Shown in pieces: positions 1 through 43,320 of a stretch of DNA of 64,000 bases. Every line of letters begins with the position of its first letter. The stretch's first letter is position 1. The stretch covers positions 73,532,001-73,596,000 of the forward strand of contig CM069138.1 in the NCBI GenBank assembly GCA_035221665.1. Direction: 5' to 3'. A program made the translations under genes and the position numbers. Below the pieces are notes generated by a model that was not told the origin of the DNA, did no database searches, and saw only the letters and a program-made list of their open reading frames with translations. The stretch comes from Okamejei kenojei (taxonomy: Eukaryota).

Positions 1-400
1 TACACTTCATACCCTTTAGGAAAATAGGCAACAACATCTCAGACTATTTTCATCCCGGACATTTACTTCACCTGCCTCTCCTGTCAGGCAGACGAAACAA
101 AAGCCAGATTCAACAAAGCTTCTTTCGCAACATTATCAGATTATTGAACGGTCTTTCCATAAATTCAGGTGCAATTTCCCAATCTACCTCTTTGCGATAT
201 CATACTTTAGTTTTTTACTTGCACTTTCTCTATAACCGTAACACGGCAAGCTGTAACACTATATTCTGCACACATTTCTCTTTGCACTACTTGTCGTACC
301 TGTTTGTGGCTTGATTGTCCTCATATATATGATTTGACTGGATAGCACACAGACAAGGTTTCACACTGTTTTTCGGTTTGATTGGTAATAATAAACTAAT
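1..400 (+). mobile_element. Degenerate Rex1/Babar-like LINE 3' end
   Basis: catccc...cctctcctgtcaggcagacg...ttcaacaaagcttcttt...atcagattattgaac resembles the 3' part of the Rex1-like copy at about 7000-7660. Confidence 0.45.
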
Positions 401-744
401 ACCAGTAGGTAGTGCATATGTATGTGCTGTTATCTTCATAACTATGATGTCTTGTGCAACTCTGGCAGACTCTGCCTACAAGATCAATTGTCACTATAAC
501 AAAAAATGTCAAATAATCCTTAAACAACGTCAATAGCAGAGCCCAATTTCATACCTGCTATTTCTAGGCTATACCTTCCCCCTCAATATTGCCTTAAGGT
601 CCAATCCAACTAAAGGAATAAGACAAGATAACAGATTGTGGCATTGCTTAGTCTATAAATGTAAAACTACAAATTACATTTGTATTATAGTTTGGGAAAG
701 AAAAACAAAAAAATAAATAAATAAATGAAGTGATTAATAACATA

Positions 745-6349: not shown

Positions 6350-6830
6350 GGCAGACTGAGCGAAGGTGTTTACTGAACACCTTCGCTCAGTTAGTCTTGA
6401 CCTCCCGATCTCCAGTTGCTAAACACTTTAATTCTCCTTCCCAGTCCCACAAGACCTTTCTGTCCTAGGCCTCCTCCATTGTCAGAATGAGGCTAAACGC
6501 AAATTGGAGGAACAGCACGTCATATTTCACTTGGGCAGCTTACAACCCAGTGGTATGAATATTGATTTCTCATCAGGTAACCCCGGCATTCCCTCTCTCT
6601 CCATCCCCCCCCACGCAAGTCGCACCAGCTTCTCATTTTCACCCAACAAACAGCAAAGAGTGGCCTGTTTCTTTTATCATCGTTACATTTTTGCATCTTT
6701 TATTCATTGGTCTATATCTCTCTATGTCATTGTCTATATCTATAGTCTGAAGAAGGATCTCAACTCAAAACTCCTTCTCTCCAGGGATGCTGCCTGTCCC
6801 TGCTGAGTTACTCCAGCTTTTTGCGTCTCT
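6350..6830 (+). mobile_element. Penelope-like element 3' fragment (GIY-YIG endonuclease C-terminus plus terminal repeat)
   Basis: SPVAKHFNSPSQSH and EEQHVIFHLGSLQPSGMNIDF fit the PLE endonuclease C-terminal pattern (PVA.HF...H...E...I..L....P.G.N). A degenerate CTGAAGAAGG motif follows at 6747. Confidence 0.75.
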
Positions 6831-7089
6831 CTTCTACTTATGCTACAATATATCCTGATTGGTTGCATAATGGCCTGGTATGGCAATTCTAACATGCAGA
6901 AAAGCAAGAGGTTGCAGAGAGCGGTGGACTCTACCCTTTCCCGCATGGCTGCAGTCTTCCCCACCAAAGGCATCTATGAAGCACTGCCTCAAGTAGGTGA
7001 CATCTATCATCCCGCCATCCAGGTCATGCTCTCTTCTTGCTTGGTACCATCAGGCAAGAGGTACAGACACATGAAGTCACACATCACCA

Positions 7090-17384: not shown

Positions 17385-18002
17385 GGTGCTATGCTGAAAT
17401 ATTAGTTAACAGCAACAAAGGGCAGCAATGGTGATCACTGTTAGAACAGTCTTACAGAAATATCCTGAAGTAACCACTACATTTGAATACCTTGCATAAT
17501 GTCTGTGTGATATGGTCATAGTTACAGCAGCCATCAACCTCATTGCTGGATGATAATAAAACTGACTGAAGCTTTGTTCTTAGTTTCACTTTAAAACAAA
17601 ACTTTAAAGTTTGCCCTGCAGCTCGATTATGTTCAATGCTCAACTGTCTTCAGCTGGCAGAGCTCCTGAAAGTGAATGGGATGCTCAAACTTAAAATGAC
17701 TAAACTGCAATTAAGATTAGAATCTGGCTGGAATCAATCTTCACTTTAACCATTTTGGAGTCATGAAACATATCTGCTCAGTTTTGAACATTTATGCAAC
17801 AATTGCAAGCACAAAGCGAGTTGACACATACGTTTATTAAATGCAAAAGGACAGATATTGTCGTGCGGGAATTTATTTGTCTTGGAGCAGACAAATAGGA
17901 GGTAGGGTTAACAATACATCCACATAGTCCTGTAGTCCCAGGTAGCTTGCTAAATTCAGGCTGGCACCTCATGGCAGGAGCATTTCAGTGGGTTAGGCAG
18001 CA

Positions 18003-18135
18003 GAATGAAGAAAGGTCTTGACCCGAAACATCTATTCCTTTTCTTCAAAGATGATGCCTGACCCGCTGAGTGACTCCAGCATTTTGTGACTATCTTCAGT
18101 GTCTATCTGCAGCATCTGCAGTTCCTTCCTACACC
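18003..18135 (+). mobile_element. Penelope-like terminal-repeat fragment with degenerate hammerhead-like core
   Basis: atgaagaaaggtcttgacccgaaacatc...gatgatgcctgacccgctgagtgactccagc...cagcatctgcagttccttcc. Confidence 0.65.
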
Positions 18136-22861: not shown

Positions 22862-22965
22862 AAGGCAAGAAACTGCAGATGGTGGTATATTGAGCAAAAA
22901 AATATGCAAACTGCTGGAGGAACTCAGCAGGCCAATGGCAGTTGTGGAGGGAAATGGAGGACAAT
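22862..22965 (-). mobile_element. Penelope-like terminal-repeat fragment
   Basis: aagaaactgcagatggtgg...ctgctggaggaactcagc, the reverse complement of the shared tail. Confidence 0.55.
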
Positions 22966-23654
22966 GTTTTTCATCACTCTTGTTTTTTTTTTTAAAAAAA
23001 CTGCTAATGAATTTAGATCCCTTGATGTCTTTTAAGGATTCTGTGATCCTGTTGTCCTTAAATTGTTTATTCCATGCAAGCTTCACAAGTGTTACCGACT
23101 GTGGTGATTATGCCAAACACAATTTTAAATGAAACTAGTGTTCCTCCATCAGAGTACATATAAACACTGATGAAAATAATGACTATATAACTGATCGTCT
23201 TTTTCCTCCAACCACTTATTTTATAAACTTAATAATATTCTGTAAATGCATTACACAAATGCAGACAATTTTGCAAGGTTTGTGGAGAATAATGGATACC
23301 TGGAAATGATTACAAGGCAGTTATTTGATTGAAGCCTTGACATGGTAACATAAAGTGCGAGAAAAATGTTTGAGTGGTTTATAACAGACATCTGAATCTC
23401 TAGATTAGATTACCGGCCAGTAATCACTTTTTAAAATATATACAGTTTTAATTTTAAATGGAGCTTTATTATATTTTCTGTTTGCCATGCTTGTTCATGC
23501 CAGTACCAACTGTCAATGCACTCACTGTTAATTAATCTAAAGGATTAATTACTGTGATGTAGTCCCTTTGGCTGGAGTTTCTTACGAAGGTGCAGATCGG
23601 AGGTTAGAGCCAAATATGTCCTGATGTTGTGTTTGTATCCCCCTAATCTTTTAA

Positions 23655-24575: not shown

Positions 24576-25916
24576 CATTACTAAAAATGTCAATAAAACC
24601 AAATGATCAAACTCTAATTCCAGTTAAATGTCATTCTTTGAATTACTGTAATTTTCCAGGCGATCTTGTGATCTTATAAAATGTAAAAATGTAAGATTAG
24701 GCTCAAATCTAGATATATCCTGAACAAAATGTGGATGTTGGAAATCTGTAATCAAAGTTTTTAAAACAGAAAATGCTGGAAACAGCAAACCTGAGATATC
24801 TGTTGAGAGTACCACAGATGGAGGAAATGGAGATAATTATTGGCAATAACATGTAATATGCAATAAGAAGGGATGTAAATAGAACGCAAGCACAGCATAA
24901 CAGAAGAAATGAATGATTGTAAAGGTAATAAGTGAAGAAAAGGGATTAAAACAAAATCAATTGCTTCCAATCCCAACATTTATGCACCATGCCCCAAAAC
25001 ACCAAAGGTAGTTGATTCAATCTTATTTCTCATGTTTAATATATCCTTTAGTTTTTTTTCTCTCTAGCTTTTCTCATTAATGCATCGACCAGGGAGTTCT
25101 GTACGTAGCAGAATGTGTTGTCCCTTTATCAAATATGTTGTCTTTCTACCTCTTATCCTAAAAGTCCATATTCACATCAGTTGCAGCATCCCTATTTACA
25201 CTATTGGTTACAATCTCAACAAGTTTTAGCAGATTTATGTTCTTTCCCAAACCCACATTGAATCTTGCCAAACTATTTTTTTCACCAAGGCATCCTTTTT
25301 TCTAAGAACTTCTTTAAAATGAGACTCCAGCATGTACCTGGCTAACATCAGACTAATTGGTCTGTTGTTCCTCGTTTCTCACTCCTGTTGTCTTAATGTT
25401 TCATCTTCCAATCTTTGGAAACTTATGCAATTTTAAAACATGACACCTTGTTCTTCACAATTCTCCATAGCTACCTCCCAAAAAGAACCTTAAGACACAG
25501 CTCGCCATTTTAGCAGCTTTCACATTCATTAATTTCACCAATGCCCATTTTCAGGAGACCTTTATTCACCAATTCTGCAGATCTCTTTTCTGGGAGGCTT
25601 TCTGTGTCTTCTTCCACAAAGACAGACAAAATGTTCAGTTTGTTTAACAGTTAACATTTCTTCCTTCAGAGTCATCAGTATGAAGAAGTGCCCTGACCCA
25701 AAATGTAGTCTGTCCATTTCCCTTGACAAATGCTGCATGACCTGCTGAATTCCAGCAGTTTCTTTTTTTGCTCAAGATACCAGCATCTGAAGTATCATGC
25801 ACATCAAAATTGCTTTAAACCTTTACATAAAATGCTTTCATATTTGTTCTTGAATCGCCTCTTATCCACCATACTATCACCTAACCATTTCTAATTACAC
25901 AATACTAGCTCTAACC

Positions 25917-26028
25917 GTTATGAACATTTGATTTTCTCATTTCTGTTATGAACATTGAATTTTCTCAATTCTGTTATGAACATAGAATTTTCTCAATTCT
26001 GTTATGAACATTGAATTTTCTCAATTCT
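25917..26028 (+). repeat. Tandem repeat, 4 x 28 bp (gttatgaacattgaattttctcaattct)
   Basis: Units start at 25917, 25945, 25973 and 26001. Confidence 0.92.
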
Positions 26029-26350
26029 GTTAACCTTGCTGTCTCCTCCCCTTCCCACCTCTCCCTCAGCCCTCGGGCCCTGGCATTCCCTCTCTCCCCC
26101 CCACCCTAGTCGCACTAGCTTCTCATTTTCACACTACAAACAGCTTCAATGGCTTGTTCCCTTTATCATCGATACTTTTTTGCATATCTTTCATTCATTG
26201 TTCTTTATCTCTCCACATCACCGTCTATATCTCTCGTTTCCCTGATCCCCGACCAGTCTGAAGAAGGGTCTCGACCCGAAAAGTCGCCCATCTCCTTCGC
26301 TCCTTAGATGCTGCTGCACCCGCTGAGTTTCTCCAGCCTTTTGTGTACCC
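26029..26350 (+). mobile_element. Penelope-like terminal repeat with hammerhead-like core
   Basis: Homologous to 6580-6830. CTGAAGA-A-GGGTCTCGACCC-GAAAAGTC lies at 26258-26285. Confidence 0.75.
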
Positions 26351-27543
26351 TAGCTCCAACCCTTCCTGGTTCCACAACATATTGATCTACAATACCATCC
26401 CTTACACATAAACACATTCGTCCTCGACAGTATTTGAACTATTCATTTTATACTTAGATTAAAATCTCCTCGATCATTCTGTTGCACATAGCTCTAAATT
26501 CCTGATTTATCCTACACCCTACATTTCCCAATTTATACACAGGCCGTCATTTATATTTTTTGAATCATTTTTCTCTGCCTTGCCTTTGATTAGAAGTATT
26601 GTTCTCTGCTGCTTCCTAATATAGTCAGCTATTTTGCCATCCTACAAAATATTTTCCTTTCCGAATTTCCAAGCACCCCCTCACCTGAAGCCACCCCCAC
26701 TCGTTATTCTAATCACACACTGTTCATGGTCCAATCCAAGCAAAGCCTATTATCACCAAAATGCAAATCATCTAATCTACAACCCTTCCTCACTTCCTTC
26801 TCATTCCTTGCCCATAATACTGAGCAACACACCAGACTTCAGCCATGAATGCAGCATTTCCCCATGATCACCAACAAGATGGTCTTGCAGTGGTCCTTAG
26901 ACTATTACATTGCATCTTGCACTATAGAGAACCAAGAGATAAGCAATGAACCGGAATTCTTCATATCAGTACAGACCACAGATAGAAATGCGTTTTTAGA
27001 TATTTTCCCAAGCGCAATAAACTGAAAGAATAAATTTAAATTTATTCATGGGCGAAAGGTTGGTGAGTAAATGTTGGGCGGAGAGACAGCAAGAGACAGT
27101 GAGAAAAACACGTGAAAAATGTATTGAATGCAGGAATGAGATCGAAATGGTACAATTTCCAGACTGGTAAGGTTGGCTGCTATTGGTATCATAATATGTT
27201 ATGAAAAGAGGCATACAATTTCTATAGCAACCAGATTATAGCTGCAAACCTGAATAATGATACTCCTTATTCATTCGTACTTGGAACTCAAAGTGTGATT
27301 ACTTTCTTAAAATTACCAAAATATCTGGAATGCTGCAGAAAAAAAAGACAGTACAGCTGATTTGTTTCAGAGTTCCATCAGGTACAGTGGCTAACATTTT
27401 AGCAGCATCTGAGGGAACTGAGATTTTTTTTTTGATTTGTATACATGTCTCTATTCATATCGTTATTTGAAATTGTGTTATTCACTATTAAGATGTATAC
27501 TATAATCTTTTTTTAATATATATATAATACTTAGTTTTAATGG

Positions 27544-27546
<3 letters not shown>

Positions 27547-27603
<57 letters not shown>
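27547..27603. repeat. (AT)n microsatellite
   Basis: Perfect dinucleotide run. Confidence 0.95.
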
Positions 27604-27604
<1 letters not shown>

Positions 27605-29192
27605 CACATTTTTTTCTCTTTCTTTTCCCTTTCTCTCTCTATATATTCAAAATTATTATTTAATCACTGATTAAAATCTATTCTTTTCTTTTTTCTAAAA
27701 AATAGAAGGTTATAAGAATTATTCGTAATATCCGTATACTTATTGAAATAAGTTGGCTGTGTATTTGAAAAGTTGTAATGCCGTTGTTATGATGGATTAC
27801 TTCTCTAATAAAAATATTATTTAAAAAATATATTTAGTTTTGCCTGAGAGGTTTTTGTTCATCACAATTTTACATTTGTGTTCTGCACTTAAAGGATTTT
27901 GATTAATGAACAACTTGTTACCAATCATTAGAGCATTTTACAACCTGCAGACCATGAACTATAGCTTGACACTTTGAATATCTTCAGCTAACAATCAAAA
28001 ACATCTACATTTGCACAAGCACCAAATGCAGTACATGATAATATACAGGTACTAGAAATTGATTATGTTTAATGATACAATTAGATTCTTAGCTCATTGA
28101 TCTGACAGGCTAGCTCCATGTCTTTCTCCACAGTTGCTGCCTGATGCCAAGTACTTCCCAACTTTCCTGATTTTATTTCATGGAAATGTGCAACACTGTT
28201 ACAAATCATATTCCCAGCTGTAAATCATCAGTTTAAATACAGAAATAAAAATCTTGGTCAAAAGAAATTGCAACATTTTAAAAATTTGGCCGCTCATGTG
28301 CACTGCCAACTCTGATAGATAATTTAGAATTTTAAACACGATAGTTTCTCGTTTGCCTATCATTTGCTGATCCATTGTTCTTTTGTTGATACGTATGAAT
28401 AACGTATTCCTAACAAATACATAGTCGAATGTGATTACGTAACAATAACGAATACGAATGTTGATTCGTGATAAGTATGAACTTTCAGAAAGTTAGCTGC
28501 AAATCTGTATAGATAAAATTGTGATATCTCCCATGTAACACCAAGTCTCAATTAAAGAATGAAAACTAGCTTAGGGTATGAATTTAATTTATTACAGACT
28601 CTTCAATGAGGTTCATTTAACATCATTTTTCTATTCTGCCAGACTGAAGGCAAATGAAATTCCAAGAGGCTTCTTCTGGGCAATTTATGGGCAAAGTTCA
28701 TTAATTAATTACCTTATTTGAATTTAGCCAAGGCTAGAAAGCAAAAACTGTATATTTCAGGTCAGCGAGAGCATTGCATAGGCGGAGTTAAAAACAAATT
28801 GAGAAGTGACAGCTTAACATGTGCTTGGAACAGTGGTTTTGTGCATCTTATCAGGAGTATATTCAAATAATGGTGCTGCATTCAGAAGAACAAAAAATGC
28901 AAACAAGTTAGCACAATATCATGTTTTGTAGAACAGAGTTGCCTAGCTTCCATTTAACGCAAACATTGAACTCGCTTCCTCGCTGTATCTCAAAACCAAA
29001 ACGAAACTGAATTAAATACACAGGGCGCATAATATTGCCATTTCTCATTAAAGTCTAATTGTGAGTCTGGACTTTACAGTGGAAGACAATGATTGTCTAC
29101 TTGTCAATTTACCGGGTCATTCATTATTTTGCAGGGAATCACACAAGGTCTCAGGCCAAACTTCCTGTAAAGCAGACCTGTATAATATTCAT

Positions 29193-29278
29193 GGGTACAC
29201 AAAAAGCTGGAGAAACTCAGCGGATACAGCAGCATCTAAGGAGCGAAGGAGATAGGCGACGTTTCGGGTCGAGACCCT
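29193..29278 (-). mobile_element. 86-bp Penelope-derived insert with a 12-bp target-site duplication
   Basis: Minus strand agggtctcgacccgaaacgtcgcctatctcc...ctccagctttttgtgtaccc, flanked by tataatattcat at 29181-29192 and 29279-29290. Confidence 0.85.
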
Positions 29279-30309
29279 TATAATATTCATAATCATTTAT
29301 TGAAAGGAGCAAATCCATTTTTTTTCTAAAATACCTTCCCTTCCCTGTCCTGCCTCATTTAAATCTTGTGGATGACAAAACTTGAGGATTAAATTGTCCA
29401 TTGAGGTTGACGCTAAAGAGTTCAAAAATGGCACGCAATAGCAAATCATGGATTAATTCACAGATGTAACCATACTTCTACCTCTTGTTCGCATTAACCT
29501 ACGCTGACCTGCCTCAAGATTCCTGCTCATTTATGCTCCAATTTGCCTATTGTTTTAAAGCCAATATAACACAAGACATTTCTACAGCGAGGCTCATGTG
29601 ATGAATGAATAGAATTTTCATAATATTGGGCACTACATTTGAATAAAAATACCTATGCCCTCAATATTCAAAATATTGCAGCAAAGTGAAACAATGTGTG
29701 TTACTGACATTAAGTTCATAGCCTCTAAAAAGAGAAGAGCATCTATTTAAAGACAGCTGCACATATTGTTTATGTGTTTCAAGGCAGTAATCATGTACTT
29801 GTTGTTTCTTTATATAGTTCTACAGCAACAAAAAAAAATTCACGCAGAAGAATATTGAGGATCGGTTTTACTTTCTTTTACTCTATCTCTTTTGGTAACT
29901 AATTCTTAAAAAGCACTAAATAAATGTAGTTTAAAAAAAACTTTCAATTACTGCAATGCTTTTCTGACATTAGCTCCAAAAGAAATGTACAAGTTGAAGG
30001 CTGAGTATTTCTGGTTTGGTTCAGATGCAAAGTAGGTTCATCTAGCTGGGTACTTCCAGTCTAAAGCAGTCAGAGTGACTCCAGAACAAAAGGATGCACC
30101 CACCTGATTATAATTTACCATCTTCCTTGAGCTGTTGAATTATACTCCTCCACCCTGGATAGTACTGCAGGACTGCTGCATTATAAGGGACAAATTAACA
30201 GTTTACAGGAAGATTCCCATCATTTTCAGCCAGCGGCATTGAATGGATAATCTATTTAGTCTTATTTCCACACAAAGTCCCCACCACAGAAGAGGTCAGT
30301 TTCTAAATA

Positions 30310-30500
30310 AAGGTGCTGTAGTAATTCAGCAGGGCAGGCAGCATGGCTGAAGAAGAGAACATGGAGAGGCAATGTTTTGGGTCAAGAAAAATCACAAAAT
30401 AAATGTAGTTTAATAGAAAAATTGTCCCAAAACATTGCCTATCCATGTCAGTCTGAAGAAGGGTCTTGACTCGAAACAATACTTATCCATGTTCTCCATC
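30310..30500. mobile_element. Penelope-like terminal-repeat fragments in opposite orientations
   Basis: Minus-strand tail at about 30310-30385 and plus-strand gtcagtctgaagaagggtcttgactcgaaac at about 30447-30477. Confidence 0.6.
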
Positions 30501-31074
30501 TATACTCCCTTTTTCCATGTTCTCCATCAATACTCCCTTTTTCCTTCAGTTTCCAACCAATTTGAATAAATTCACATGATATTGAAAATCACTGAGAGCA
30601 ATGGGTACAACCAAATACTTTTGGTATAGAACGACATGCAGATGGAAAAGATGTGCTCCAGAAGTAGCCACAACTTTAATTAAACTGTTTCATCCTGTTG
30701 GTTGCAAGATGTTAATAAACATGGCAATATGGAAACGTCCAGATTTATCCTATCATCAAAACAACACAGACAAATTCAATCCAATCCAGTTTCTACCTAG
30801 CTAGTATTCTCTCATTTGCCAGAAAGTAATGGAAGGTAGTGTTCGTAGTACTATAAGCTGCATTTCCTCACCAATAACATGCTCACTAACATTCATTTTA
30901 GGTTTTGTCAGGGCTTGCCGACTCCAGACCACATCACAATCATGGCCCAAGAATGAAACAAACAGTAGAATTAACAAGGCACGGTGAGAGTGCTCATGAC
31001 ATCGAGGTCACTTTTATCCGAGTGTAACGTTACAACTCCACAATGAAAAAAAGTCAATGAATATCAATATCAAT

Positions 31075-31430
31075 TCATGAGGATGTTGCCTGGAATGGAG
31101 TTCTTCAGTTCTGAAGAGAGACTGCTGAGGCTAGGCCTGTTTTCTCTGGAGCAGAGGAAGTAGTTAGGAGATTGCATTATTGAGGTATTTAAAATTATGA
31201 AGGATATTGATAGGGTAGACTGTAGAGAGGTGAACACCTGGAATACGACCTGAGAGTGGTGGAAGCAGAATTGGTGGCTTAAGAAGTGCCCTAGTGAGCA
31301 CTTGAATTCCCTAGGTCTAGAAGCCTCTGGGCCAAGTCCTAGAAAGTGGGATTAATAAGGATGGGTCCCCATTTGTCAGCATTATCAGGTGGGCCGAATG
31401 GCCAGTTTCCACGCTACATGGTTCTGTTAC
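31075..31430 (+). mobile_element. Old CR1 3' fragment
   Basis: aggatgttgcctggaatggag...tttctctggagcagaggaag...aaaattatgaaggatattgatagggtagac...gggccgaatggcc. Confidence 0.7.
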
Positions 31431-31799
31431 TATCCTAATAATTGGAATCATGCATTACACAAAGGAAAATGATCGTGGATGTTGGAAGCATAGTTATCCC
31501 ACTCGGGACATCACTGCAGGTAGTCTCATGAAATATCCTATCACCATTTTTCTTTACAGCTACATCAATGAACTTTCCATTATAAAAGGTCATATGTGGG
31601 GATGCTTGTGGTTAAAATGCAATGTCAGGTAATGCTGACCAAATAATATTAGCTACAATTGTGAGGTAAGATACCAGGTGATAAATATCTCTAAGGGTTT
31701 TAGGACAATGGTTGACCGCATAAAGGTACAGTAGTAACACATTCCCAGGAAAATAACGAAACGCATTAGAATCAGAACCATATTGCACAAACACAGGCA

Positions 31800-32005
31800 A
31801 CATTAGCCCAAATTATTCATGCCTATAGCTAGTCCCATTCGTCTGTGTTTACCCCATATCCCTCGAACCCTTTCCTATACATGTACCTGATCTAAGATCT
31901 TTTAAATGTCATAATTACACCTGCCTCTTACAGGCAGCTCTTCCCATTTTACCATCACCCACTCTGTGAAAAAGTTGCCCCTCAGATCCCTTTTAAATGT
32001 TTCCA
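31800..32005 (-). mobile_element. CR1 3' fragment
   Basis: gctagtcccatt...cccatatccctc...ttcctatacatgtacctg...gtgaaaaagttgcccctcagatccc. Confidence 0.65.
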
Positions 32006-32519
32006 TTTGTAGTAGGAATACAAGTTCAGATCACAAAACAGGAATAATAGGCAAGATTAAAGAGATGATAGGTTAAAAAAAAGTCATTTGCTTCTAAAGT
32101 ACAGAAATTTGGAGCTGCAGGGTTTTAAACAGATACAAAGATGAGATCTTTAAGCAACAGCTCAGCCTAAGAAGAAAGCAGCTCTATTACTCACAAGAGA
32201 TAAGACACACATTTCCTCTCCTGCTATGAGTATTAGTTTATTTACTGGGAAAATAGGATAAATAAATCCACCAGAATTCAACAGAGGGGAATCAACAGAG
32301 AATCTGAAGTTTAAGCAAATATAATATATGCCATTAAAATCACGTCAAGGGATTATTAAAAAAGAGCTAGTCAGAAGCATTAAGAGAGTTTATATAGAAA
32401 TTCTCAGAATATTCTGCTCACAAGAGATGTTAAGAAGTTTGACAATGTGACATGGAATGCAAAGTAAAACCAAGTATAGTGAAAATAATTCAGCTATTGT
32501 GGATTTCTAAGTTTTGTTC

Positions 32520-33600
32520 ATTTTGTAATTACTAATTAAAGACAGAAAATGGATAGTTCAAGAGAGTCCTGCACTGCTAAAAGATACATATTTCAGCCCA
32601 AGACTATTTCTACTGAACATTGGTGGACAACTCTAATTGCCAGTCTGAGTTATAAGATTCAGGGCAGTCAAGATGCAGTCACAGAAGACATACAAATATA
32701 CCACTGTCATTTGGTTAAGACTGGTCTGGTAATGCATTCATTTGGATTGTATCTGTTTTGTTTAATGTATGTTGTGTCATACAGCTGTCTTGTTATTTGA
32801 ATAAATTGGATTCTAAACTTCCTCAACAAGCAGCTTTGCACTTGGAATCACTTATATCAACCAACCTTGTTTATCCAAATTCCATCCACAGCTCCTCAGC
32901 AAATATAGTAGTCAGCATTCAAATGCAGAAGCACCTAAACAATATTCAAACTTAAGCTGATACATTCAATAGCATTATCATCCAAAATCCCCCACCATTT
33001 ATATTCTAGTCAATATTGAGGATAGGTGGTAACCCGTCTTTGCCAATGGCACCCTGACTGCATAAAAACAGAAAGTTATGGGCAAATCAGTTTATGAACG
33101 GATACTAATTTAGAGACAAAAATTGAAATGTTGCTAATCTGCCATTGGCTATGCAAAAGTACCATCTCAACCTTAGGCTCCCAAGTTCTGTAGGAACTTG
33201 CAAAACAATGCAACAAGTTAATTCTTGCATTGTACCTGCTGAGCTGCAAATGAATGATCACTGTGCAATAAATAGTGATGCTAGATATAAAAACGATTCA
33301 AAGTGCAAAGCAGCTTGATGAGGAAGTTTAGAATTAGTTTATTCAAATAACATAACAACAACATTGTACTACACACATTAAACAAAGCAGGGGCAAACAA
33401 AATAAGCACTCAGGCAGGCCAGATCTAACCAAAGAACCAGAAACAGTGTATGACTATTCTCAACATCTCTTTCTCCTAAATCGAACCTGCAATTGGACTG
33501 GTCCTCCACTCATCAGCAGCAATTGGCTTAGGCTGAAATATTTAAACATCTTAAAGTTATATTTCTGCATTATTTTCTGTCTATTAATTATTTTTATCTT
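32520..33600. repeat. Approximately 1.1-kb diverged palindrome (fold-back or MITE-like)
   Basis: 32791-32849 is close to the reverse complement of 33295-33352. Outer arms (atatttcagccc/ggctgaaatat; agacagaaaat/attttctgtct) and inner arms (gccaatggca/tgccattggc) also match. Confidence 0.75.
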
Positions 33601-33711
33601 TTACTGACATAATTACTGTCATTCAACCCTTCTAACATTGGATAATTAAATGTTACAGACAAATATTTTGTTCCTTCCTGCGTCAATTGCTTGCAGAGAT
33701 GGTAAAGAAAG

Positions 33712-34390
33712 AAGGAGACATGAGAAACTGCAGACTCTGGGATCTCGAGCACAAGGCAAGCTGCTGGAGGAAGTCAAGTGGATCCGGCAGTGTCTGAGGG
33801 GAGACTAGTCAGATGACGTTGTCGGTCGGGACCCTTCTTCAGACTGACGTAGTGGAGGGAAAAGCTGAAAAAGAGGGGTGGGGGTGTGGCAAATCTTGCC
33901 AAGTCATAGTTGAATACAAGTGAAGGAGGTGATTGGCAGATGGGTGGAGTAAGTGACCAAGGCTTGAGGTGAAAAATAGCCAAAAAGGTGTAAGGCAAGG
34001 AAAGAAGATGAGGTGTGAGATGTTAGGCAAGAGGCAGAGATGTGGGTGGAATGGGACAAGGGGGATGGAAATGTGGTGAGGGATGAAGGGAAAATATGGG
34101 ACTCGGGGATGGTAGATGTATGTACAGAGGAGTGGAAAGGAGCATGGTGACAGGGGTAGTGGGAGATGGTGGAAGAAATGTGTGTGCATATTTGGATGTG
34201 CACACATAGAATACAAAGTACTGTTCTGGATCGGTTACAACCCAAAGGTATGAACATTGAATTCCCCAATTTCAAGCAATAGCCTCCACCCCACCTCATC
34301 ACCCCCTCTCTTTCCATTGGGCCCCACCTGACTATGGTGCACATGCATTTCTCCATGACCTTCATCACCCTGCATCTTCCCCCCCATCAT
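33712..34390. mobile_element. Penelope-like remnant: minus-strand terminal repeat plus a plus-strand endonuclease end
   Basis: Minus-strand gtcagtctgaagaagggtcccgacc at about 33824-33848. Plus-strand ttacaacccaaaggtatgaacattgaattccccaatttcaag (LQPKGMNIEFPNFK) at about 34235-34276. Confidence 0.65.
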
Positions 34391-34460
34391 TTGCTTCAAA
34401 TCCCTGCAGAATCAGAATGTAATCTAGAGTTTTCCTCCTTTGGATATTAAGCTGTCAGAT

Positions 34461-34587
34461 CACTGGTCCATGATATACAAACTCGATTCCCACCCTACAA
34501 CTTGCAAAATACATGAGGTAAGTAAGATCTTTCCATTATATATTTTACAAGTTGTGGGGTGGGAATGAGAATTGTGTACCATGGATC
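34461..34587. repeat. Imperfect hairpin of about 125 bp (MITE-like)
   Basis: ggtccatgatatacaaactcgattcccaccctacaacttgcaaaata pairs with tattttacaagttgtggggtgggaatgagaattgtgtaccatggatc. Confidence 0.7.
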
Positions 34588-35559
34588 ATAGAAACATAGA
34601 AAATAGGTGCAGGAGGAGGCCATTCAGCCCTTCAAACCAGCACCACCATTCATTGTGATCATGACTGATCGTCCCCCATCAATAACCCGTGCCTGCCTTC
34701 TCCCCATATCCATTGACTCCACTAGCCCCTAAAGCTCTATCTAACTCTCTCTTAAATCCATCCAGTGATTTGGCCTCCACTGCCCTCTGTGGCAGGGAAT
34801 CCCATAAATTCACATCTCTGGGTGAAAAAGTTTTTTCTCACCTCAAGTCTTAAATGACCTCCCCTTAATTCTAAGACTGGGGCCCCTGGTTCTGGACTCG
34901 CCCAACATTGGGAACATTTTACCTGCATCTAGCTTGTCCAGTCCTTTTATAATTGTATATGTTTCTATAAGATATCCCCTCATCCTTCTAAACTCCAGTG
35001 AATACAAGCCTAGTCTTTTCAATCTTTCCTCGTATGACAGTCCCGCCATCCCAAGGATCAATCTCGTGAACCTACGCTGCACTGCCTCAATCACAAGGAT
35101 GTCCTTCCTCAAATTAGGAGACCAAAACTGTACACAATACTCCAGATGTGGTCTCACCAGAGTCCTAAACAACTGCAGAGGAACCTCTTTACTCCTATAC
35201 TGAAATCCTCTTGTTATGAAGGCCAACATTCCATTAGCTTTCTTCACTGCCTGCTGTACCTGTAAGTCAACTTTCTGTGACCGGTGTACAAGGACACCCA
35301 GGTCTCGCGGCACCTCCCCCTTACCTAACCTAACCCCATTGAGATAATAATCTGCTTCCTTGTTTTTGCCGCCAAAGTGGATAACCTCACATTTATCTAT
35401 ATTATACTGCATCTGCCACGCATCTGCCCACTCACTCAACCTGTCCAGGTCACCCTGCAACCTCCTAACATCCTCTTCACAGTTCACACTGTCACCCAGC
35501 TTTGTGTCATCTGCAAACTTGCTAGTGTTGCTCCTAATTCCCTCTTCCAAATCATTAAT
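34586..35559 (-). mobile_element. 5'-truncated young CR1 LINE (RT C-terminus, 235-aa open frame)
   Basis: ORF 34843..35550: SKFADDTKLG...LQGDLDRLSEWADAWQMQYNIDKCEVIHFG...VRPHLEYCVQFWSP...VQRRFTRLI. 3' tail ttctatgtttctatg. Confidence 0.92.
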
Positions 35560-36799
35560 ATGGACCCAGTGCTGCTATTGCTTAATGAACCAACAACATT
35601 TTATGCTATGGTGGCTTTAACAGTCACTGGTCTACGCAGCTGATTGCCTTATAGAGTCAGTAGGTGAAATGCACCTCCAGTCTGATGTTCGTAGATCATT
35701 TCCGTTTCAAATGCACCATGTACTCCTCTAAATTTCCCTTTCTGCATAACTTCTCTTTCTTCCAATTACATACTTAACTCCACTATCAGCAACCTCTCCC
35801 CCTGAGCTGCAGTTCCTTGTCTTCCCCTCCTACTTCCCTCTTGTTAAGACCAGAGACTGTGCAAGACCCGAGACTGTGCAACCACTGTTGCAGAGGACGA
35901 GTTTGATTTCTTCATGAGCCACGCAGAATTGTGCCGTTAAGGGTCGAATGCTTTCTTGGTGCGATTAAATTGGCTGCTTTAGAAAATAATGAATCCCTGA
36001 TATGCTGGATGTATTTTCCCAATAGAAGTTTCATCAATATGGTCAATCCAGACATAGACCATGGCAGTGAAAGTTCATTGTTGTGCCTCAAAACTGAATT
36101 GCATACACCATGTCAAATCCAATTTCTACGAAAAATTAAAATACATGAATGTAAATCTGTGACTTACCACCAAGATTGTAAATTCCACCATGTTCATGCT
36201 GGGGTCCTCTGTGTGGCTAACCTGGACTGCACACCAAAGACCTTTGATAGGCAATGTGATATTCCATGACGTGCAAAGTGTGTCTGTATACCATCTCTGT
36301 GATGTCTATGAGATTCAGAAGCTCCTCATACAGAAGCAGGGTATGAATGGTCAGTGACCCATGCTTTTGTGGAGGCTCACGGCAGACATTCCCAAGCATG
36401 GCCCAGGCCAGAGCAGGAACCCCAATTGCAGTAGGTCACCTTTAAATTCTTGACTTGATTTGTGACGTTCCCACATAATTCCAAAATCTAATGATTCCCA
36501 AACACTTCCCAAGCTTGTGGAACTTCAGTATTTACCAAACACTCTGCTGACTGACGATGACATAATACCAGTCTCAAACACCCCATTGATTTCAAACCTT
36601 CCCAACTTTCAAGAATACACTACAGCCCTTGCCAATAACTTCCCACTGACTATTGATTGTGCTCCCCCATCTTCAAGATTCAAAGCAGCTGACCCCTCTA
36701 ATGGCACAATTCACAACTGCCCCAATCATCCACAAAGCACACGATTGAAAAGAGGGCATTACTTAAGGCCATTGGGTCTGAGACAACTTTACCATTGTG

Positions 36800-36894
36800 G
36801 TCTGAAGAAGGGTTTCGGCCCGAAACGTTGCCTATTTCCTTTGCTCCATAGATGCTGCTGCAGCCGCTGAGTTTCTCCAGCACTGTTGTCTACC
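36800..36894 (+). mobile_element. 95-bp Penelope-derived insert with intact hammerhead-like core and an 11-bp TSD
   Basis: gtCTGAAGAaGGGTttcgGCCCGAAACGTTgcct...; ttaccattgtg at 36789-36799 and 36895-36905. Confidence 0.85.
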
Positions 36895-38049
36895 TTACCA
36901 TTGTGCTATCATGGTCTCAATTTCATATGTTCAACCAAAATGAACGAGCATTTTATTTACAGCCAGAAATTTCATTAGGAAACAGGGTGGTGTTAAAGCA
37001 GGTGTTGTTACTTCAAGTGAATATTTTGATCCCTATTCCAATTTTGTTCACGGCAGATTCAATTCATGTTAACCTTTTTCAATGCAACTTTTTATTCACT
37101 GGTGCAAATCATCAATTTTCTCTTCACATCCAAGTTGCCCATCCCTCTTCTGAATTATTGCTGTCATTGGCACTTGTTTTCTATATTTCTCCTAAATTGA
37201 CCCAATTCTTTGGAATTGTTCCTATTTTAAAAAAAAACCATTGAATTCCCCTTCCTTACATTTTCTTTTATAAATTTGTTAAATGAGATCATTCCTAGCC
37301 CTTAGCAGCAATACACTTTATATTTTTTTCCTAATGTGCATTTTCTTTGGAAAATTAGATATGAAACTAATACAACTATATTCCTGTACCATTACCTATA
37401 CGTACCAGAATTTTTACAAATCTGCTGAATAATTTAGTAAACATGCTATAAACAAGAAAGTATAATCTGTATAAAATATTGGTCCATGTGGTGTATATTT
37501 AAAAATTAGTTTTACTTCCTTCCACATTGCAGGCATGGTCACTACACGTTTAAATATTTTAGTTCGGGTGACCTCTAAAAAGAAGATTGCGTCATACTAA
37601 GAGTTTGGTGACACAGTGGAATTTAAATTTCACTGACATCAAAGACGAACTGCTGAGAACACCCAAGGTCAAAGCACAAAATTAGCAGACAACAAAGAGT
37701 GATCCATAAACTTTCAACACTAGGACCTCGAGCTATGAATTTAATTTCATTTGCTTGGATCGCAACATAATTTTAGCAGGCACAAATTGTTAGGATGTGT
37801 TGCTTAGGTTTCCAGTATCATTTTCAACAGTATTATTGTAACTAATCTTTCATCAGCTTGTACTTTCAGTAGCTCACAATGTGGGAGCAATAAAACAGAC
37901 AGCCGGCCAAAGATTCCATTGTTTTCAAAGTTTAAAAAATATACATTTCTGCGTGAAATATGATAAACTAGGGTTGCTGCCCAAACAATGTTAACATCAG
38001 TCTTCACACTCATTGTTGAATGCTCACATAAAAACAAACAAGCCCGTAC

Positions 38050-38244
38050 CTCAAAATCATTTGCTTTGTTGTAGTGCATGTTTAAGGCTCTGAAGAGTTC
38101 AGAGTCACGGGAGACAGTCAGCTCCTCCGTGCTTGTTGTTCCATCGTTAATAGACTGACGAGCAAACTTCTCCATCTGGATGTAGTAAAATTCTCGGAAA
38201 TTGCTGAACCACTTGATAAGCTGTGAGGTGATGCACCTATTAAA
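38050..38244 (-). CDS. PROX1: PROX1 coding exon 4 (195 nt, homeodomain C-terminal half and start of prospero domain)
   Basis: FNRCITSQLIKWFSNFREFYYIQMEKFARQSINDGTTSTEELTVSRDSELFRALNMHYNKANDFE, flanked by the ttggcAG acceptor and GTACGG donor; phase 0. Confidence 0.96.
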
Positions 38245-39679
38245 CTGCCAATCGAAAAATACAACAGGATGAGCAAATTCAGTTTCAATCAGCCACTATG
38301 CTTTAAGTTAATAACATTTAAAATAAAATATTATGTTCCATAATAAATCCAAAACTATTTTATGTGATCATACATATATACTACATCCACCGCAGATGTA
38401 TTGTGCAATAGAAACTGTATATGTCTCAAACTAAATGAAGTAACTTTGCTCTTCAATATATAACTATGATTAGTAGATCGATGCCAACCAACATTTAAAA
38501 AATACTTTGCACAATCTCTTCAGTTAATATATTCTTCCAGTTCAGCAGAATCAAATTTTTCCATAAACTCAATCCATCTTGGGAAAAGTTATTTAAAAAC
38601 TTTATTTTTCTTCTATATTAGCATGTATAAGATGCAACCATTATTCCACCCAATTGCAACAACGCAAAATCCGCACGAGAACTAAATCTTAAATGATGGA
38701 CTTCAAATGGATATGGTAAATTTTCAGCATTGTATAGGTTGGAATGAATATTTATAATCTTGGCTTCTTTTTCATTTCTGTAATGAAATAGTTTAGATGG
38801 GACTATAAAATTACACTTTTGTATATTAATTTCCCTTTCTTTTATTTTACCTAAACATCCGATTGTGGATAAGTAGAGCACCACAAGAAAGTGCAGAGAA
38901 ACAAACGTCCTTTCCTAATGGAAATATATATAGGACCCCAAGATACTTCTCTGTCAGACTTAAATAAGAAAAGGTCTGGAAGGACCACAGCCTTTTCAAC
39001 ATTTGGTTCTTTGTTTCAACAAAGGATGTCACCAAAAAAAAGGAGAGAGAAAAGCATACATAAATACTGTGGCTTTATATCAACAATCACAATCGTCTAA
39101 TTCCATACAAATAAAATCATCCGGGCAATCATGTTTCAAAGTGATGAAATGTTATTGGGTAAATTAACCCGTTGAACATCCCATTTTAATACAGCCATCA
39201 GCCTTAATGTTCCCTGTAACTGTTTCTCTAGTTTACAGGTATTGTAGTGAAAAAGACTACAATGAAGAGGTATGGACTTTGAGGGATTCTTTCTGTTTAA
39301 CTGAACTAGGTCAGGCACGAAGTCTTGGAAAAAAAAACAAATATCAGAGTCTGCAGTACCAATTGTGCATTAAAGTAATTGGCAATGCTACATTCCACTT
39401 TTGGATACAAACAGTATACAGCTGCTAAAAATTTAGATATTTAGTGCTTGTGAGAGGACAAATTTCTCCCCTCTGAGCTCCAAATTTTCATTTGCGTTCT
39501 GAGCTCAGCATGTGTGGAGAAGATGTTAAGAGAAAATTGTTGGGTACTTCCTCAGCAAAACATTCAACCATCCAAAAGGAGGTCCTCTCTCCCATAGGGA
39601 CCGATGATTTCAAATGCTGAGGTCACTACTTCAACCTCAATGAGATGGAGTGTATTAGGTTGACCCCAAGGAGAATTTA

Positions 39680-40012
39680 GGGCCTGTCCCAATTACGTGA
39701 CCTTTACAGGCGACTGCCAGCACCCGTGATAGGTTGCCGAATTTTTCAACATGTTGAAAATTCAACGGCGACCAGAAAGATGCTACATCTCTTTGGAGAC
39801 ATCTCTTAACCATAGGAGATCTCTCACGACCATACAGGCTGTCGCCGGGGTCGCCTGTATGGTCGCGAGAGGTCACCTGTGTGGTCGTGAGAGGTCTGCA
39901 ACGAGTCATAACGTCTTTCTGGTCGCCGCTGAATTTTCAACGTTGAAAATTTTGGCGACCTATCACGGGTGCCGGCAGTCGCCTGTAATGGTCGCGTAAG
40001 TGGGACAGGCCC
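39680..40012. mobile_element. Palindromic Harbinger-like MITE (333 bp)
   Basis: Termini GGGCCTGTCCCA...TGGGACAGGCCC. The arms are complementary over more than 100 bp, with TTA/TTT-type flanks and high CpG content. Confidence 0.8.
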
Positions 40013-42323
40013 TTTAGGATGCAAAAGGAGCCTGGTCGCCACCGGGCAAATTTCAAAAAGGAAGGCAAGGGGACATAAAAGTGTCAAAAAGTACTCCCGT
40101 CTCCCAAAATCTCTGACAAACAACCAAAAGGCACCCGCTGAGGAGAAGGCTCCAATTTTGCAATTGCAAATATTCTTGCTGTCTCAACTTCGAAGAACAC
40201 AACCATATAGCAAGGGTTGGACTGTTTCCAGTCTACCCATTTCATGAAGAAAACTAAAGCTTGCATATCCAAGCCATTAATTTCAAACTGAAAATTAATG
40301 TTTAGTAAAATAGTTATTGTACGTAAACTGACTAAGAACCTCTGCCTCTTCTCTGCCCCTCAATAACATTACCATTTATATTTCAAGAACTATTAAAAAA
40401 TGTTAAAGGTCAAGGCTTTAGAGCTACCTTGTATATTAGCCACAGCTGGCAACTGAAGTGACCAAAGTGGATGGTTTTCAAAGTAGTTATTCAAACCACT
40501 CTCGCTCCATAAAAGTGTCAAGGTCATGGACAATCTTCCAGACATAGCTATTGTCAAACTATTTGGAAGTTGGATTGCTCATGGTAGCTGACTTCAGACC
40601 TAGTTGCTTGATGACCCTGATCATTTATGGGGACCCACTAGTCTATAACAAATGTTGGCGTCCTCTCCAATAGGATTTCCTGTATGTTCAAGGTCAGCTA
40701 AATCTCTATTAGTCAAGTTAAAACCAGTAAATTTATACTGCCTGTACATCAGAAAGGCTTTTCTCAACATCGGCATCTATCATTTTTCTTCCCATTTACG
40801 GCACAAAGTGTGCATTAATCAAAAATCACAGTGAGCACTTATCAAGCACTTGCTCTGGCCACGAAGAGGGCTGCCTGCTTCTATCAAGCTGACAGTTAAT
40901 GGGTGTGTAATTACAAAGCAGAAAGTTGTTTCTATTCCAGTGAATTTAAGATAATGAAGTGAATGAAAATTCATGGCAGTGAAGGCTAAGTAACATGGAA
41001 ACAGAAGTGGAAGCTGGTGCAGCTCCTAAAGGCCAGCTTGCATCATAATTGCCTTCCAGTTGCAAGGGTCCTCACAGATAATTGACCAGAAAATGATTAA
41101 GTCATCATCAAATCACTCTGACTGCAAGAGTTCAAACATGTACTTAACCTATCCAAGAATTATATTTTCACTCTGTGTGTCTGTTCTGTCTCCATTCAGC
41201 CTTGCGGGGACCTGATTAAAAAGACAACTGAAGGACCCCATTATCTGATTTGCTGTTGATTTCAATAGAACTTAAACCCATTACTATTTGCTGAACTCTG
41301 AGTTCTTTCCATGTTATCTCTGCAGCAAAATACACTGTCCAAATTTCCAGACACTGAGATAAGAACTGCAGGCCCCATGACGACTACTGTTCCTTTTTAA
41401 TTCTTTTAGTATAAGAAACAAAACATAACAAAACGATAGCAGCCTGCGCACCCGGGAATGAAAATTGCTTTGACATGGAGATTAAGCTTCAGTATTGTCA
41501 CAAGACATTGTCTCCTACATGCAAGAATAGAGAAAAAAGAAAGGGTATTTTTTCTAGAATGGCCTGTAGATGACCTAATGGGACTACAAAAAAAAAAAAT
41601 AAGTCCACATGACAGTGTTTGGTAGAAGGGTATAAAGGGAGATTTAAAACCTATTGTTACAGAATTGAAATACCAGAGATGCACTGGCCAAAACAACAGA
41701 GCCACTCAAACATGAGGGCTCAGCATTTAAGACTTGTGTCACTTTTTGCTTATCAAACATTAACAGTTCCTGAATTAGTTTTTTTTTAAAACAAACATAG
41801 TAATCTTGATCTTTAAGGTTTTCGGTGGTGCATCACAAACAAGTGACAGGAACAAGAGAAGGCCTCTTCTTTTTGCAACCTAGCTGTTCCCGAGACGGAT
41901 TAATGCTTCCCGTGGGACATGTCCAATCCCAGTGTTTGCTGAAGAAACTTCCTAAATATTCAATGAGCACAGTCAAAAGACCCATAAAGAAAATCACTTT
42001 GACACCTTAATCTAGTTAGGCAGTGATCGACTAGTCAATGTTTGGGGGTTGGTGGGGTTGCGGTTGGCAGACAACAAGAGGGTAGGTAGAGAAAATTAGA
42101 TTTTTAATATATTGATGAAGTCCGCTCTGGGTGATCATGAGTGATTCTAAATATTTTGGTTATTTTAAGCAATAATATAAATCACATTACCTTATTAATA
42201 CAAAAATGGCTCTTTATTTAATTGTCTTAATCTTAAATGCTGTGCTGGTTCCGTTGCAAATAACTTCACCTTAGCAATTAAAATTTAACAGCAGTGTTGC
42301 AAAACATCCCAAATATATAACAT

Positions 42324-42507
42324 TTAAGAAGGAACTGCAGATGCTGGAAAATCAAAGGTAGACAAAAGTGCTGGAGAAACTCAGCGGGTGCAGCAGCATC
42401 TATGGAGCGAAGGCTGAAGAAGGGTTTCGGCCCGAAATGTTGCCTATTTCCTTCGCTCCATAGATGCTGCTGCACCAGCTGAGTTTCTCCAGCCCTTTTG
42501 TCTACCT
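42324..42507. mobile_element. Penelope-derived inverted (head-to-head) insertion
   Basis: 58-bp arms at 42356-42413 and 42450-42507 (2 mismatches) enclose CTGAAGAAGGGTTTCGGCCCGAAATGTT. Confidence 0.85.
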
Positions 42508-42639
42508 ACAAAATATATAGCAACTAGGTGCAGCATTAGTCATTCCAGTTGCCATTTCTGCTTGCGAAAAACTGATATAGAATAGGAACATTGTCCCATG
42601 TTGACTGAAGAAAATGCACATAACTGGAGTTTAAAAAAC

Positions 42640-43097: not shown

Positions 43098-43320
43098 GAC
43101 ATAAGAGACTGCAGGTGCTGTAATCTGGAGCAAAACAATAACCACTGGGAAAACTCAGTGGATCAGGCAGCACCCATGAAGGCAAAAGGTTGATCAATGT
43201 TGTGGGTTGAAACCCTTTCATCTGGACCCATCCACCCACCATGGTGTCAGCCCACAACATTCATTTAGCCCATACCTCCTCCGATGCTGCGTGACGCGCT
43301 GAGCTCTTCCAGCAGTTTTG
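43098..43320 (-). mobile_element. Degenerate Penelope-like terminal repeat with a partial inversion
   Basis: Minus-strand ggtccagatgaaagggtttcaaccc... and plus-strand gatgctgcgtgacgcgctgagctcttccagcag. Confidence 0.55.

Follow-up and report, generated by a model that had tools for sequence, protein, structure and literature searches.

Truncated Penelope-like elements of Okamejei kenojei carry a minimal hammerhead and possible traces of its cleavage

Penelope-like elements (PLEs) with hammerhead ribozymes in their pseudo-long terminal repeats (pseudo-LTRs, or pLTRs), with tails and with inverted copies, have already been published (PMC4209133, PMC8557442). The metazoan pLTR hammerheads described by Cervera and De la Pena (2014, PMC4209133) share the core found here, with an extra base between nucleotides 9 and 10.1, a G10.1-C11.1 pair and a palindromic 15.2-16.2 segment. 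They likewise occur in both pLTRs, as many solo motifs from truncated copies, and in opposite-strand pairs. The copies considered here were found in a stretch of 64,000 nucleotides of Okamejei kenojei ("the window"; GenBank assembly GCA_035221665.1, contig CM069138.1, positions 73,532,001 to 73,596,000) that includes coding exons of PROX1. Shark or skate terms are absent from the available part of supplement file 2 of PMC4209133, and the literature searched, at the level of titles and listings, holds nothing specific on hammerheads or PLEs in cartilaginous fish. The question at stake is whether the minimal hammerheads of PLEs cut in vivo: PMC4209133 states that evidence for this is absent, and Frangieh et al. 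(2024, PMC11167929) found none in RNA-seq. The element and its hammerhead belong to a known kind, and the part worth following is a set of inserts at the predicted cut ("scars") and of template jumps; tens of thousands of young copies let such rare intermediates be counted in this genome. The repeats are likely the decaying 5'-truncated ends of a PLE whose pLTR contains a minimal type I hammerhead that cuts rarely, probably assisted by protein in a transposition particle.

The element unit of 3,955 bp is composed of the hammerhead, a tail, an open reading frame (ORF) encoding a reverse transcriptase (RT), a cysteine linker and a GIY-YIG endonuclease (EN), and a pLTR. Full-length copies came from a genome search with an RT piece (frames up to 1,197 codons; 20 loci fetched). 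Loci L151 and L152 display an open frame of 1,197 codons and motifs 3,955 and 3,954 bp apart, and L154 and L170 likewise have motifs flanking the ORF. In these four loci, the motif and the upstream EN end are repeated either side of the ORF and form the pLTRs of a partial tandem. Pfam matches the element protein to RVT_1 (E=5e-6) and GIY-YIG (E=0.004). An earlier note on the window, made from its sequence, had proposed a Penelope origin, which this full-length unit, with its RT and GIY-YIG frame and its motif in both pLTRs, bears out. The same note had recognized GIY-YIG C-terminal remnants upstream of longer copies; these were found at 6747 and 26258, and longer copies in general harbor GIY-YIG and RT remnants upstream of the hammerhead. 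Its distinct family of tiny inserts has to be abandoned, the copies being 5'-truncated ends of the autonomous element: the 5' ends of short copies grade without a break into those of longer truncations and finally of full-length elements. The PLE origin of the repeats is not in doubt. Of the L151 frame, unusually long for a PLE, about 300 proline-rich codons (L151:4300-5200) lie between the N-terminal domain and the RT.

The EN+ (endonuclease-bearing) PLEs of Craig et al. (2021, PMC8557442) have in common with this element partial tandems, an inverted 5' copy, a 30-40-bp tail and a CX2-5CxxC linker, a motif that the C-x4-C-x2-C linker of the L151 protein fits. Clear target-site duplications of 8-25 bp, found around the copies, set it apart from these EN+ PLEs. 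The PAc Poseidon element of Anolis (PMC11167929) resembles it in another way: reverse transcription initiates internally at two sites that define the tail, both DNA strands are extended, priming from RNA 3' ends is weak, and the hammerhead, located near the ORF start, cleaves only with protein. Unlike in PAc Poseidon, the long frame has its first ATG some 165 nt past C3 of CUGA (position 0 of all element positions given here, the predicted cut falling between +27 and +28) and not in stem II, and the Cys linker suggests a Neptune/Nematis affinity. The genomic cut scars and the jump entries at +240 and +262 reported below are not described for PAc Poseidon in the available text of that paper.

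Two 3' ends of the element are observed, near +92 (short tail) and near +127 (long tail). All collected loci, a partly selected set, contain 184 head-to-head pairs; among the 141 classifiable ones, 107 combine one long and one short tail. By analogy with PMC11167929, this excess may arise because there are two internal priming sites, each nicked DNA strand using one of them. A hairpin at +64..+79 (e.g. window 36866-36881) recurs in all folds, with a conservation across subfamilies equal to that of the core, and is a candidate protein-binding or initiation signal.

The consensus core reads CUGANGA / GAAA / NUH, with the extra base after A9, G10.1-C11.1 and the palindromic 15.2-16.2. The four subfamily consensuses (59, 32, 28 and 9 of 146 members) all retain it unchanged, as the minimal type I architecture put forward in the earlier note would have it, and the 13 nt past the predicted cut differ among them. 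Among individual copies, preferential conservation of the core is not supported: non-CpG changes affect 6.2% of the core vs 8.1% of the invariant tail (p=0.035), in a sample where detection favors intact cores, and G12, which sits in a CpG, is changed in 29 of 119 copies (24%). The core is still intact in 39 of 87 scored copies, with helix II intact too in 21. The U-A and U-G variants of helix II, which had been taken as structural support, are a one-sided change, and the change of the loop that goes with it gives rise to a competing hairpin in which GAAA is buried. The Rfam covariance-model search of the window gave 22 matches at E<=5, none of them to a hammerhead, and the naked RNA is not predicted to fold as one. 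Since the core changes like the rest of the element and folds poorly, the inserted copies look unselected; they decay near-neutrally, any selection acting on master elements.

Exact motifs number 60,086 in the 2.76-Gb genome (reversed control: 0), as against about 4,000 descriptor matches in coelacanth and 9,000 in Xenopus (PMC4209133), a comparison that is not like for like. A profile search of fifty-nine 10-kb stretches at round coordinates gave 235 matches in 590 kb, or 3.98 per 10 kb (sd, standard deviation, 2.9), which extrapolates to about 1.1 million pieces in the genome.

Seven copies outside the window possess an insert of A or of A/T only, 3-33 nt long, exactly between nucleotides 17 and 1.1, with intact flanks. 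L350/L426, seen on inspection of 5' ends at +28, displays the whole upstream half, a 33-nt A-run and the whole downstream half. A genome-wide search for the core followed by A8 starting 0-9 nt further on (+25..+34) gave 17 matches at 13 loci. Clean inserts exactly at 27/28 are present in four (L426, L427, L431 and L433, those besides L426 being 10, 19 and 33 nt long); one locus shows the expansion of an existing A at +32, and the remaining eight are truncations or unrelated. If positions were uniform, three of four new in-element A-runs would fall on one out of ten positions with a probability of about 0.004. Sixty further loci provided three more clean inserts (L445, L446 and L447; 3, 3 and 13 nt) and two trimmed ones (L454 and L498). 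At the +31 control position two mixed inserts and no A/T-only one were found, and the background amounts to one A/T-only insert of at least 3 nt in 362 copies x 80 positions. The scar loci vary in subfamily markers, ends and duplications, and a single ancestral event is therefore unlikely. On this evidence the A-run, RNA tail or untemplated complementary DNA (cDNA) alike, would mark an RNA break at the hammerhead position, and the scars in other copies suggest hammerhead cleavage. In the second copy of L335 (-), a 7-nt microsatellite of a type also present at other repeat ends is inserted at the cut site with a duplication of GTC.

The second line of evidence comes from RNA ends. In 93 of 124 core-bearing sampled copies, templated upstream sequence is shorter than 20 nt, references for old subfamilies being possibly incomplete. 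The 90 loci (of 466) that bear the ORF start show a 5'-end hazard of 0.022 per nt between +2 and -10, vs about 0.004 elsewhere. The ORF-start piece ends inside the locus in 62 of these 90, with 15 ends at +236..241 and 22 at +255..267, and most ended pieces join directly to a downstream tail-primed stub. These clusters are possibly trimmed or terminated RNA 3' ends. Loci L246-L335 (G000 C1-C3) include a smaller end group at +551..578, some members having short A-runs. Forty-two serial-jump loci were retained after removal of two duplicates and five tandem arrays, with one end corrected by hand. Both segments share their 5' base in eight (permutation mean 0.8; 0 of 20,000), and the second segment passes the 5' end of the first in two (permutation mean 6.5; p=0.0025). 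We infer that the enzyme reaches a physical 5' end of the RNA, from which it continues by a template jump at a 3' end belonging to that RNA too. Jump junctions vary by locus, with microhomology or untemplated bases, and several carry short A-runs and an additional G. A cap-derived G is suggestive only: nine of 24 raw junction insertions end in G, about 9/13 after removal of reference-variant cases, and G precedes AGT in 2,909 of 7,594 non-C cases (38% vs a 27% background), many of them from inverted partners.

In R2 (Eickbush et al. 2013, PMC3774820), too, junctions reflect the self-cleavage site, and the RT adds untemplated bases on template run-off. The R2 ribozyme is HDV-like (hepatitis delta virus) and defines that element's 5' end, whereas the predicted cut is here internal, rare and bridged. 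Template jumps or cut scars in PLEs are not described in the literature searched, a weak negative with subscription papers mostly outside it.

These observations could be accounted for as follows. Reverse transcription would start internally in the tail, where each nicked DNA strand would use one of two sites, and inverted pairs of long and short tails would result. The RT would run to the RNA 5' end, which would often be an RNA start located shortly upstream of the core, and could from there jump to an RNA 3' end. On a template cut by the hammerhead, it would copy to nucleotide 1.1 and jump to the 3' end of the upstream product, leaving an A-run that is tailed or untemplated. We lean, by a small measure of confidence, towards the view that this genome preserves fossil traces of germ-line cutting by a PLE minimal hammerhead whose helix I has only 2 bp: both halves would stay in the particle, the upstream half would be tailed, and a template jump would heal the cut. 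Together with the jumps from RNA 5' ends to +240 and +262, this would map the template RNA and explain pLTRs and retrozyme-like arrays from linear RNA. The exact-cut inserts and the equal 5' ends in serial copies give sharp predictions on cleavage in vivo.

Several points weigh against this interpretation. The Pfam scores of RVT_1 and GIY-YIG are below the gathering cut-offs. Helix I, very short as the earlier note had observed, has 2 bp, the third position being A-C in 49 of 57, vs typically 4-5 bp in PMC4209133, where a D. virilis variant also has 2 bp. The covariation looked for in the helices is absent, with no compensatory pair change and one-sided U-A to U-G only, the subfamilies being possibly too close. 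In young copies, prediction on naked RNA gives helix II a probability of <=0.04, with competing hairpins present. The scars are rare, seven clean ones among tens of thousands of copies, and are known from assembled sequence alone; that of L426 was noticed by inspection and then prompted the genome-wide search. At loci with AA before the junction, A/T-only inserts amount to 5/35 at +28 (including L454, trimmed by 1 nt) vs 0/28 at +31, a modest difference. Apparent 5' ends total 234 at +28 vs 159 at +31 and 109 at +25, an excess of 1.5-2.1-fold only, and many are fold-back palindromes. The competing hairpin of subfamily C1 ends at G28, so that a stall could mimic the cut site. The count of eight equal ends depends on the hand-corrected locus (seven otherwise) and on the exclusions mentioned above. 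Finally, public RNA runs (contigs, mostly presumed RNA) mirror DNA copy number and yield no evidence on starts, ends or splicing.

Several of these points are expected if the same element bears a vestigial hammerhead that never cuts, the A-rich inserts then arising from an RT stall near the G28 hairpin edge, or from a cut by a protein nuclease, followed by untemplated bases. The site is passed without change in almost every cDNA (normal length in 174 of 199 spans), PMC11167929 saw no RNA-seq reads with their ends there and found that cleavage was not required in vitro, and abundant PLEs lack hammerheads (PMC8557442); the 2-bp helix I, the low predicted folding and the C1 hairpin that ends at G28 fit as well. 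This explanation is rather unlikely, however, in view of inserts of 10-33 nt that sit precisely at the NUH position and leave both flanks complete, of the breaks at the same place in L454 (C2, with a different hairpin) and L498, and of a core kept invariant while the sequence past the cut diverged.

A third explanation would make the stubs an independent non-autonomous family, resembling short interspersed elements (SINEs) or retrozymes and copied from small circular RNAs through hammerhead dimers or back-splicing. The very high number and narrow size of the stubs invite it, as do short tandem arrays at 5/47 jump loci, which resemble nascent retrozymes. Non-LTR retrozymes (bioRxiv 10.64898/2026.07.22.740005) are indeed tandem type I hammerhead units derived from PLE pLTRs, one chondrichthyan case being reported in the available text; a few short arrays are found here too. 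Tandem non-coding hammerhead monomers are absent from the window, where copies are solo or head-to-head and, in contrast with retrozymes, grade into full-length elements. The arrays L276, L305, L313, L315 and L330 have units of about 280-330 nt with the hammerhead and repeated junctions, and L443 (C2:137651883-137652104) contains a 64-nt tandem unit beginning at the cut site. As for back-splicing, a donor-like AAG|GTA.G shares bases with the first ATG of the long frame and the core follows a polypyrimidine-CAG (L151:3790-3820), and an exact donor-to-CAG join exists at two independent loci among 21 matches (L174, L184/L185); the case for back-splicing from this ORF-start site is weak, AG microhomology being able to explain the joins. 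A spliced 5' exon GTGG lengthening helix I was rejected as a query bias, absent from the unbiased set. With 5' ends that grade into longer truncations and coincide neither with the cut site nor with one fixed junction, and with locus-specific junctions showing microhomology or untemplated bases, an independent stub family is very improbable, and truncated ends of the autonomous PLE are preferred.

In the window, the 28-nt hammerhead motif has three matches by pattern search, exact at 36802 and with one change each at 26258 and 42414, for 0.00 expected from 100 shuffles. These, the degenerate copies at 6747, 18005, 25680 and 30453 (+) and those at 29260-84 (the truncated copy near 29278), 33817-42 and 43198-224 (-) agree with the positions in the earlier note. 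A profile built from window copies and sampled genome copies detects 14 element pieces, 8 on the + and 6 on the - strand (Table 1), four of them new: 22867-22970 and the inverted partners 30310-30387, 42328-42437 and 43243-43320.

Table 1. Copies of the element in the window, with the PROX1 exon for context
Position	Strand	Feature	Remark
36800..36894	+	Solo pLTR stub, young C2 subfamily; core intact	Begins 2 nt before core; ends at short tail
26005..26351	+	5'-truncated C1 copy: GIY-YIG frame end, pLTR, hammerhead 26258, short tail	
42323..42506	.	Head-to-head insertion, inverted + direct piece	
29193..29279	-	Solo C1 stub, truncated within core (without CUGAAG)	Sense to PROX1
6375..6835	+	Older truncated copy: GIY-YIG C-terminal remnant, pLTR, decayed hammerhead 6747	
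18002..18133	+	Older solo stub with a decayed core (18005) and a long tail	
22867..22970	-	Old stub without core	Profile search
25676..25796	+	Old stub whose core (25680) has decayed	
30310..30509	.	Old pair joined head to head; core (30453) decayed	
33723..33940	-	Old copy with a broken core (33842) and about 90 nt of pLTR upstream	
43103..43320	.	Old pair joined head to head; core (43224, -) decayed	
38050..38244	-	PROX1 coding exon (homeo-prospero domain)	Context

The young stub has its core at 36802-36829, a predicted cut after 36829 (GUU), an 11-bp target-site duplication (36789-36799 / 36895-36905) and a competing hairpin in its predicted fold. The C1 copy with hammerhead 26258, where C15.2 is changed to A, is 93.9% identical to the full-length unit and follows a run of short tandem EN-end repeats (about 25920-26030). 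In the head-to-head insertion, an inverted long-tail piece (42323-42413) is joined to a direct piece composed of hammerhead 42414, with C15.2 changed to U and without U2.1, and a short tail. An imperfect duplication lies near 42311-42319 / 42511-42519; the insertion is predicted to fold into one long hairpin, burying the hammerhead in its own fold-back. The solo C1 stub on the minus strand has a 12-bp duplication (29181-29192 / 29279-29290).

PROX1 is encoded on the minus strand, with coding exons near 57.1-58.8 kb, 47.9-48.05 kb and 38.05-38.24 kb; the three best hammerhead copies are therefore antisense to it, as previously stated. Their placement in PROX1 introns stands in part: neither a motif scan nor Pfam on 37 pre-filtered minus-strand frames located the last coding exon in the window, and so an intron position is shown only for the copies at 42.3-43.3 kb, those below 38 kb being placed there by inference. 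A link with PROX1 is not supported, the 2.2 pieces per 10 kb of the window representing no enrichment over the genome sample, with no strand bias; as a family the repeats are ordinary, being of an already known and very common type with no special PROX1 tie. Recruitment of the copies by the host as ribozymes on PROX1 pre-mRNA or an antisense transcript has only their position in this locus in its favor and is scarcely credible against a density under that of the sample, both strands occupied, best copies antisense, no sense-strand copy with an intact core, and a decay like that of the remainder of the element. The window copies are predicted to be inert passengers, without action on PROX1 RNA.

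Other repeats occur in the window. A 335-bp inverted repeat at 39679-40013, with arms 82% identical, is by profile unrelated to the PLE. A 243-codon RT remnant of the long interspersed element (LINE) type lies at 34843-35574 (-), with a weak RVT_1 match, and a 234-bp piece at 14299-14532 matches 34586-34819 at 92%. Inverted segments at 32585-32857 and 33287-33544, matching at 77-78%, suggest an old DNA transposon or miniature inverted-repeat transposable element (MITE).

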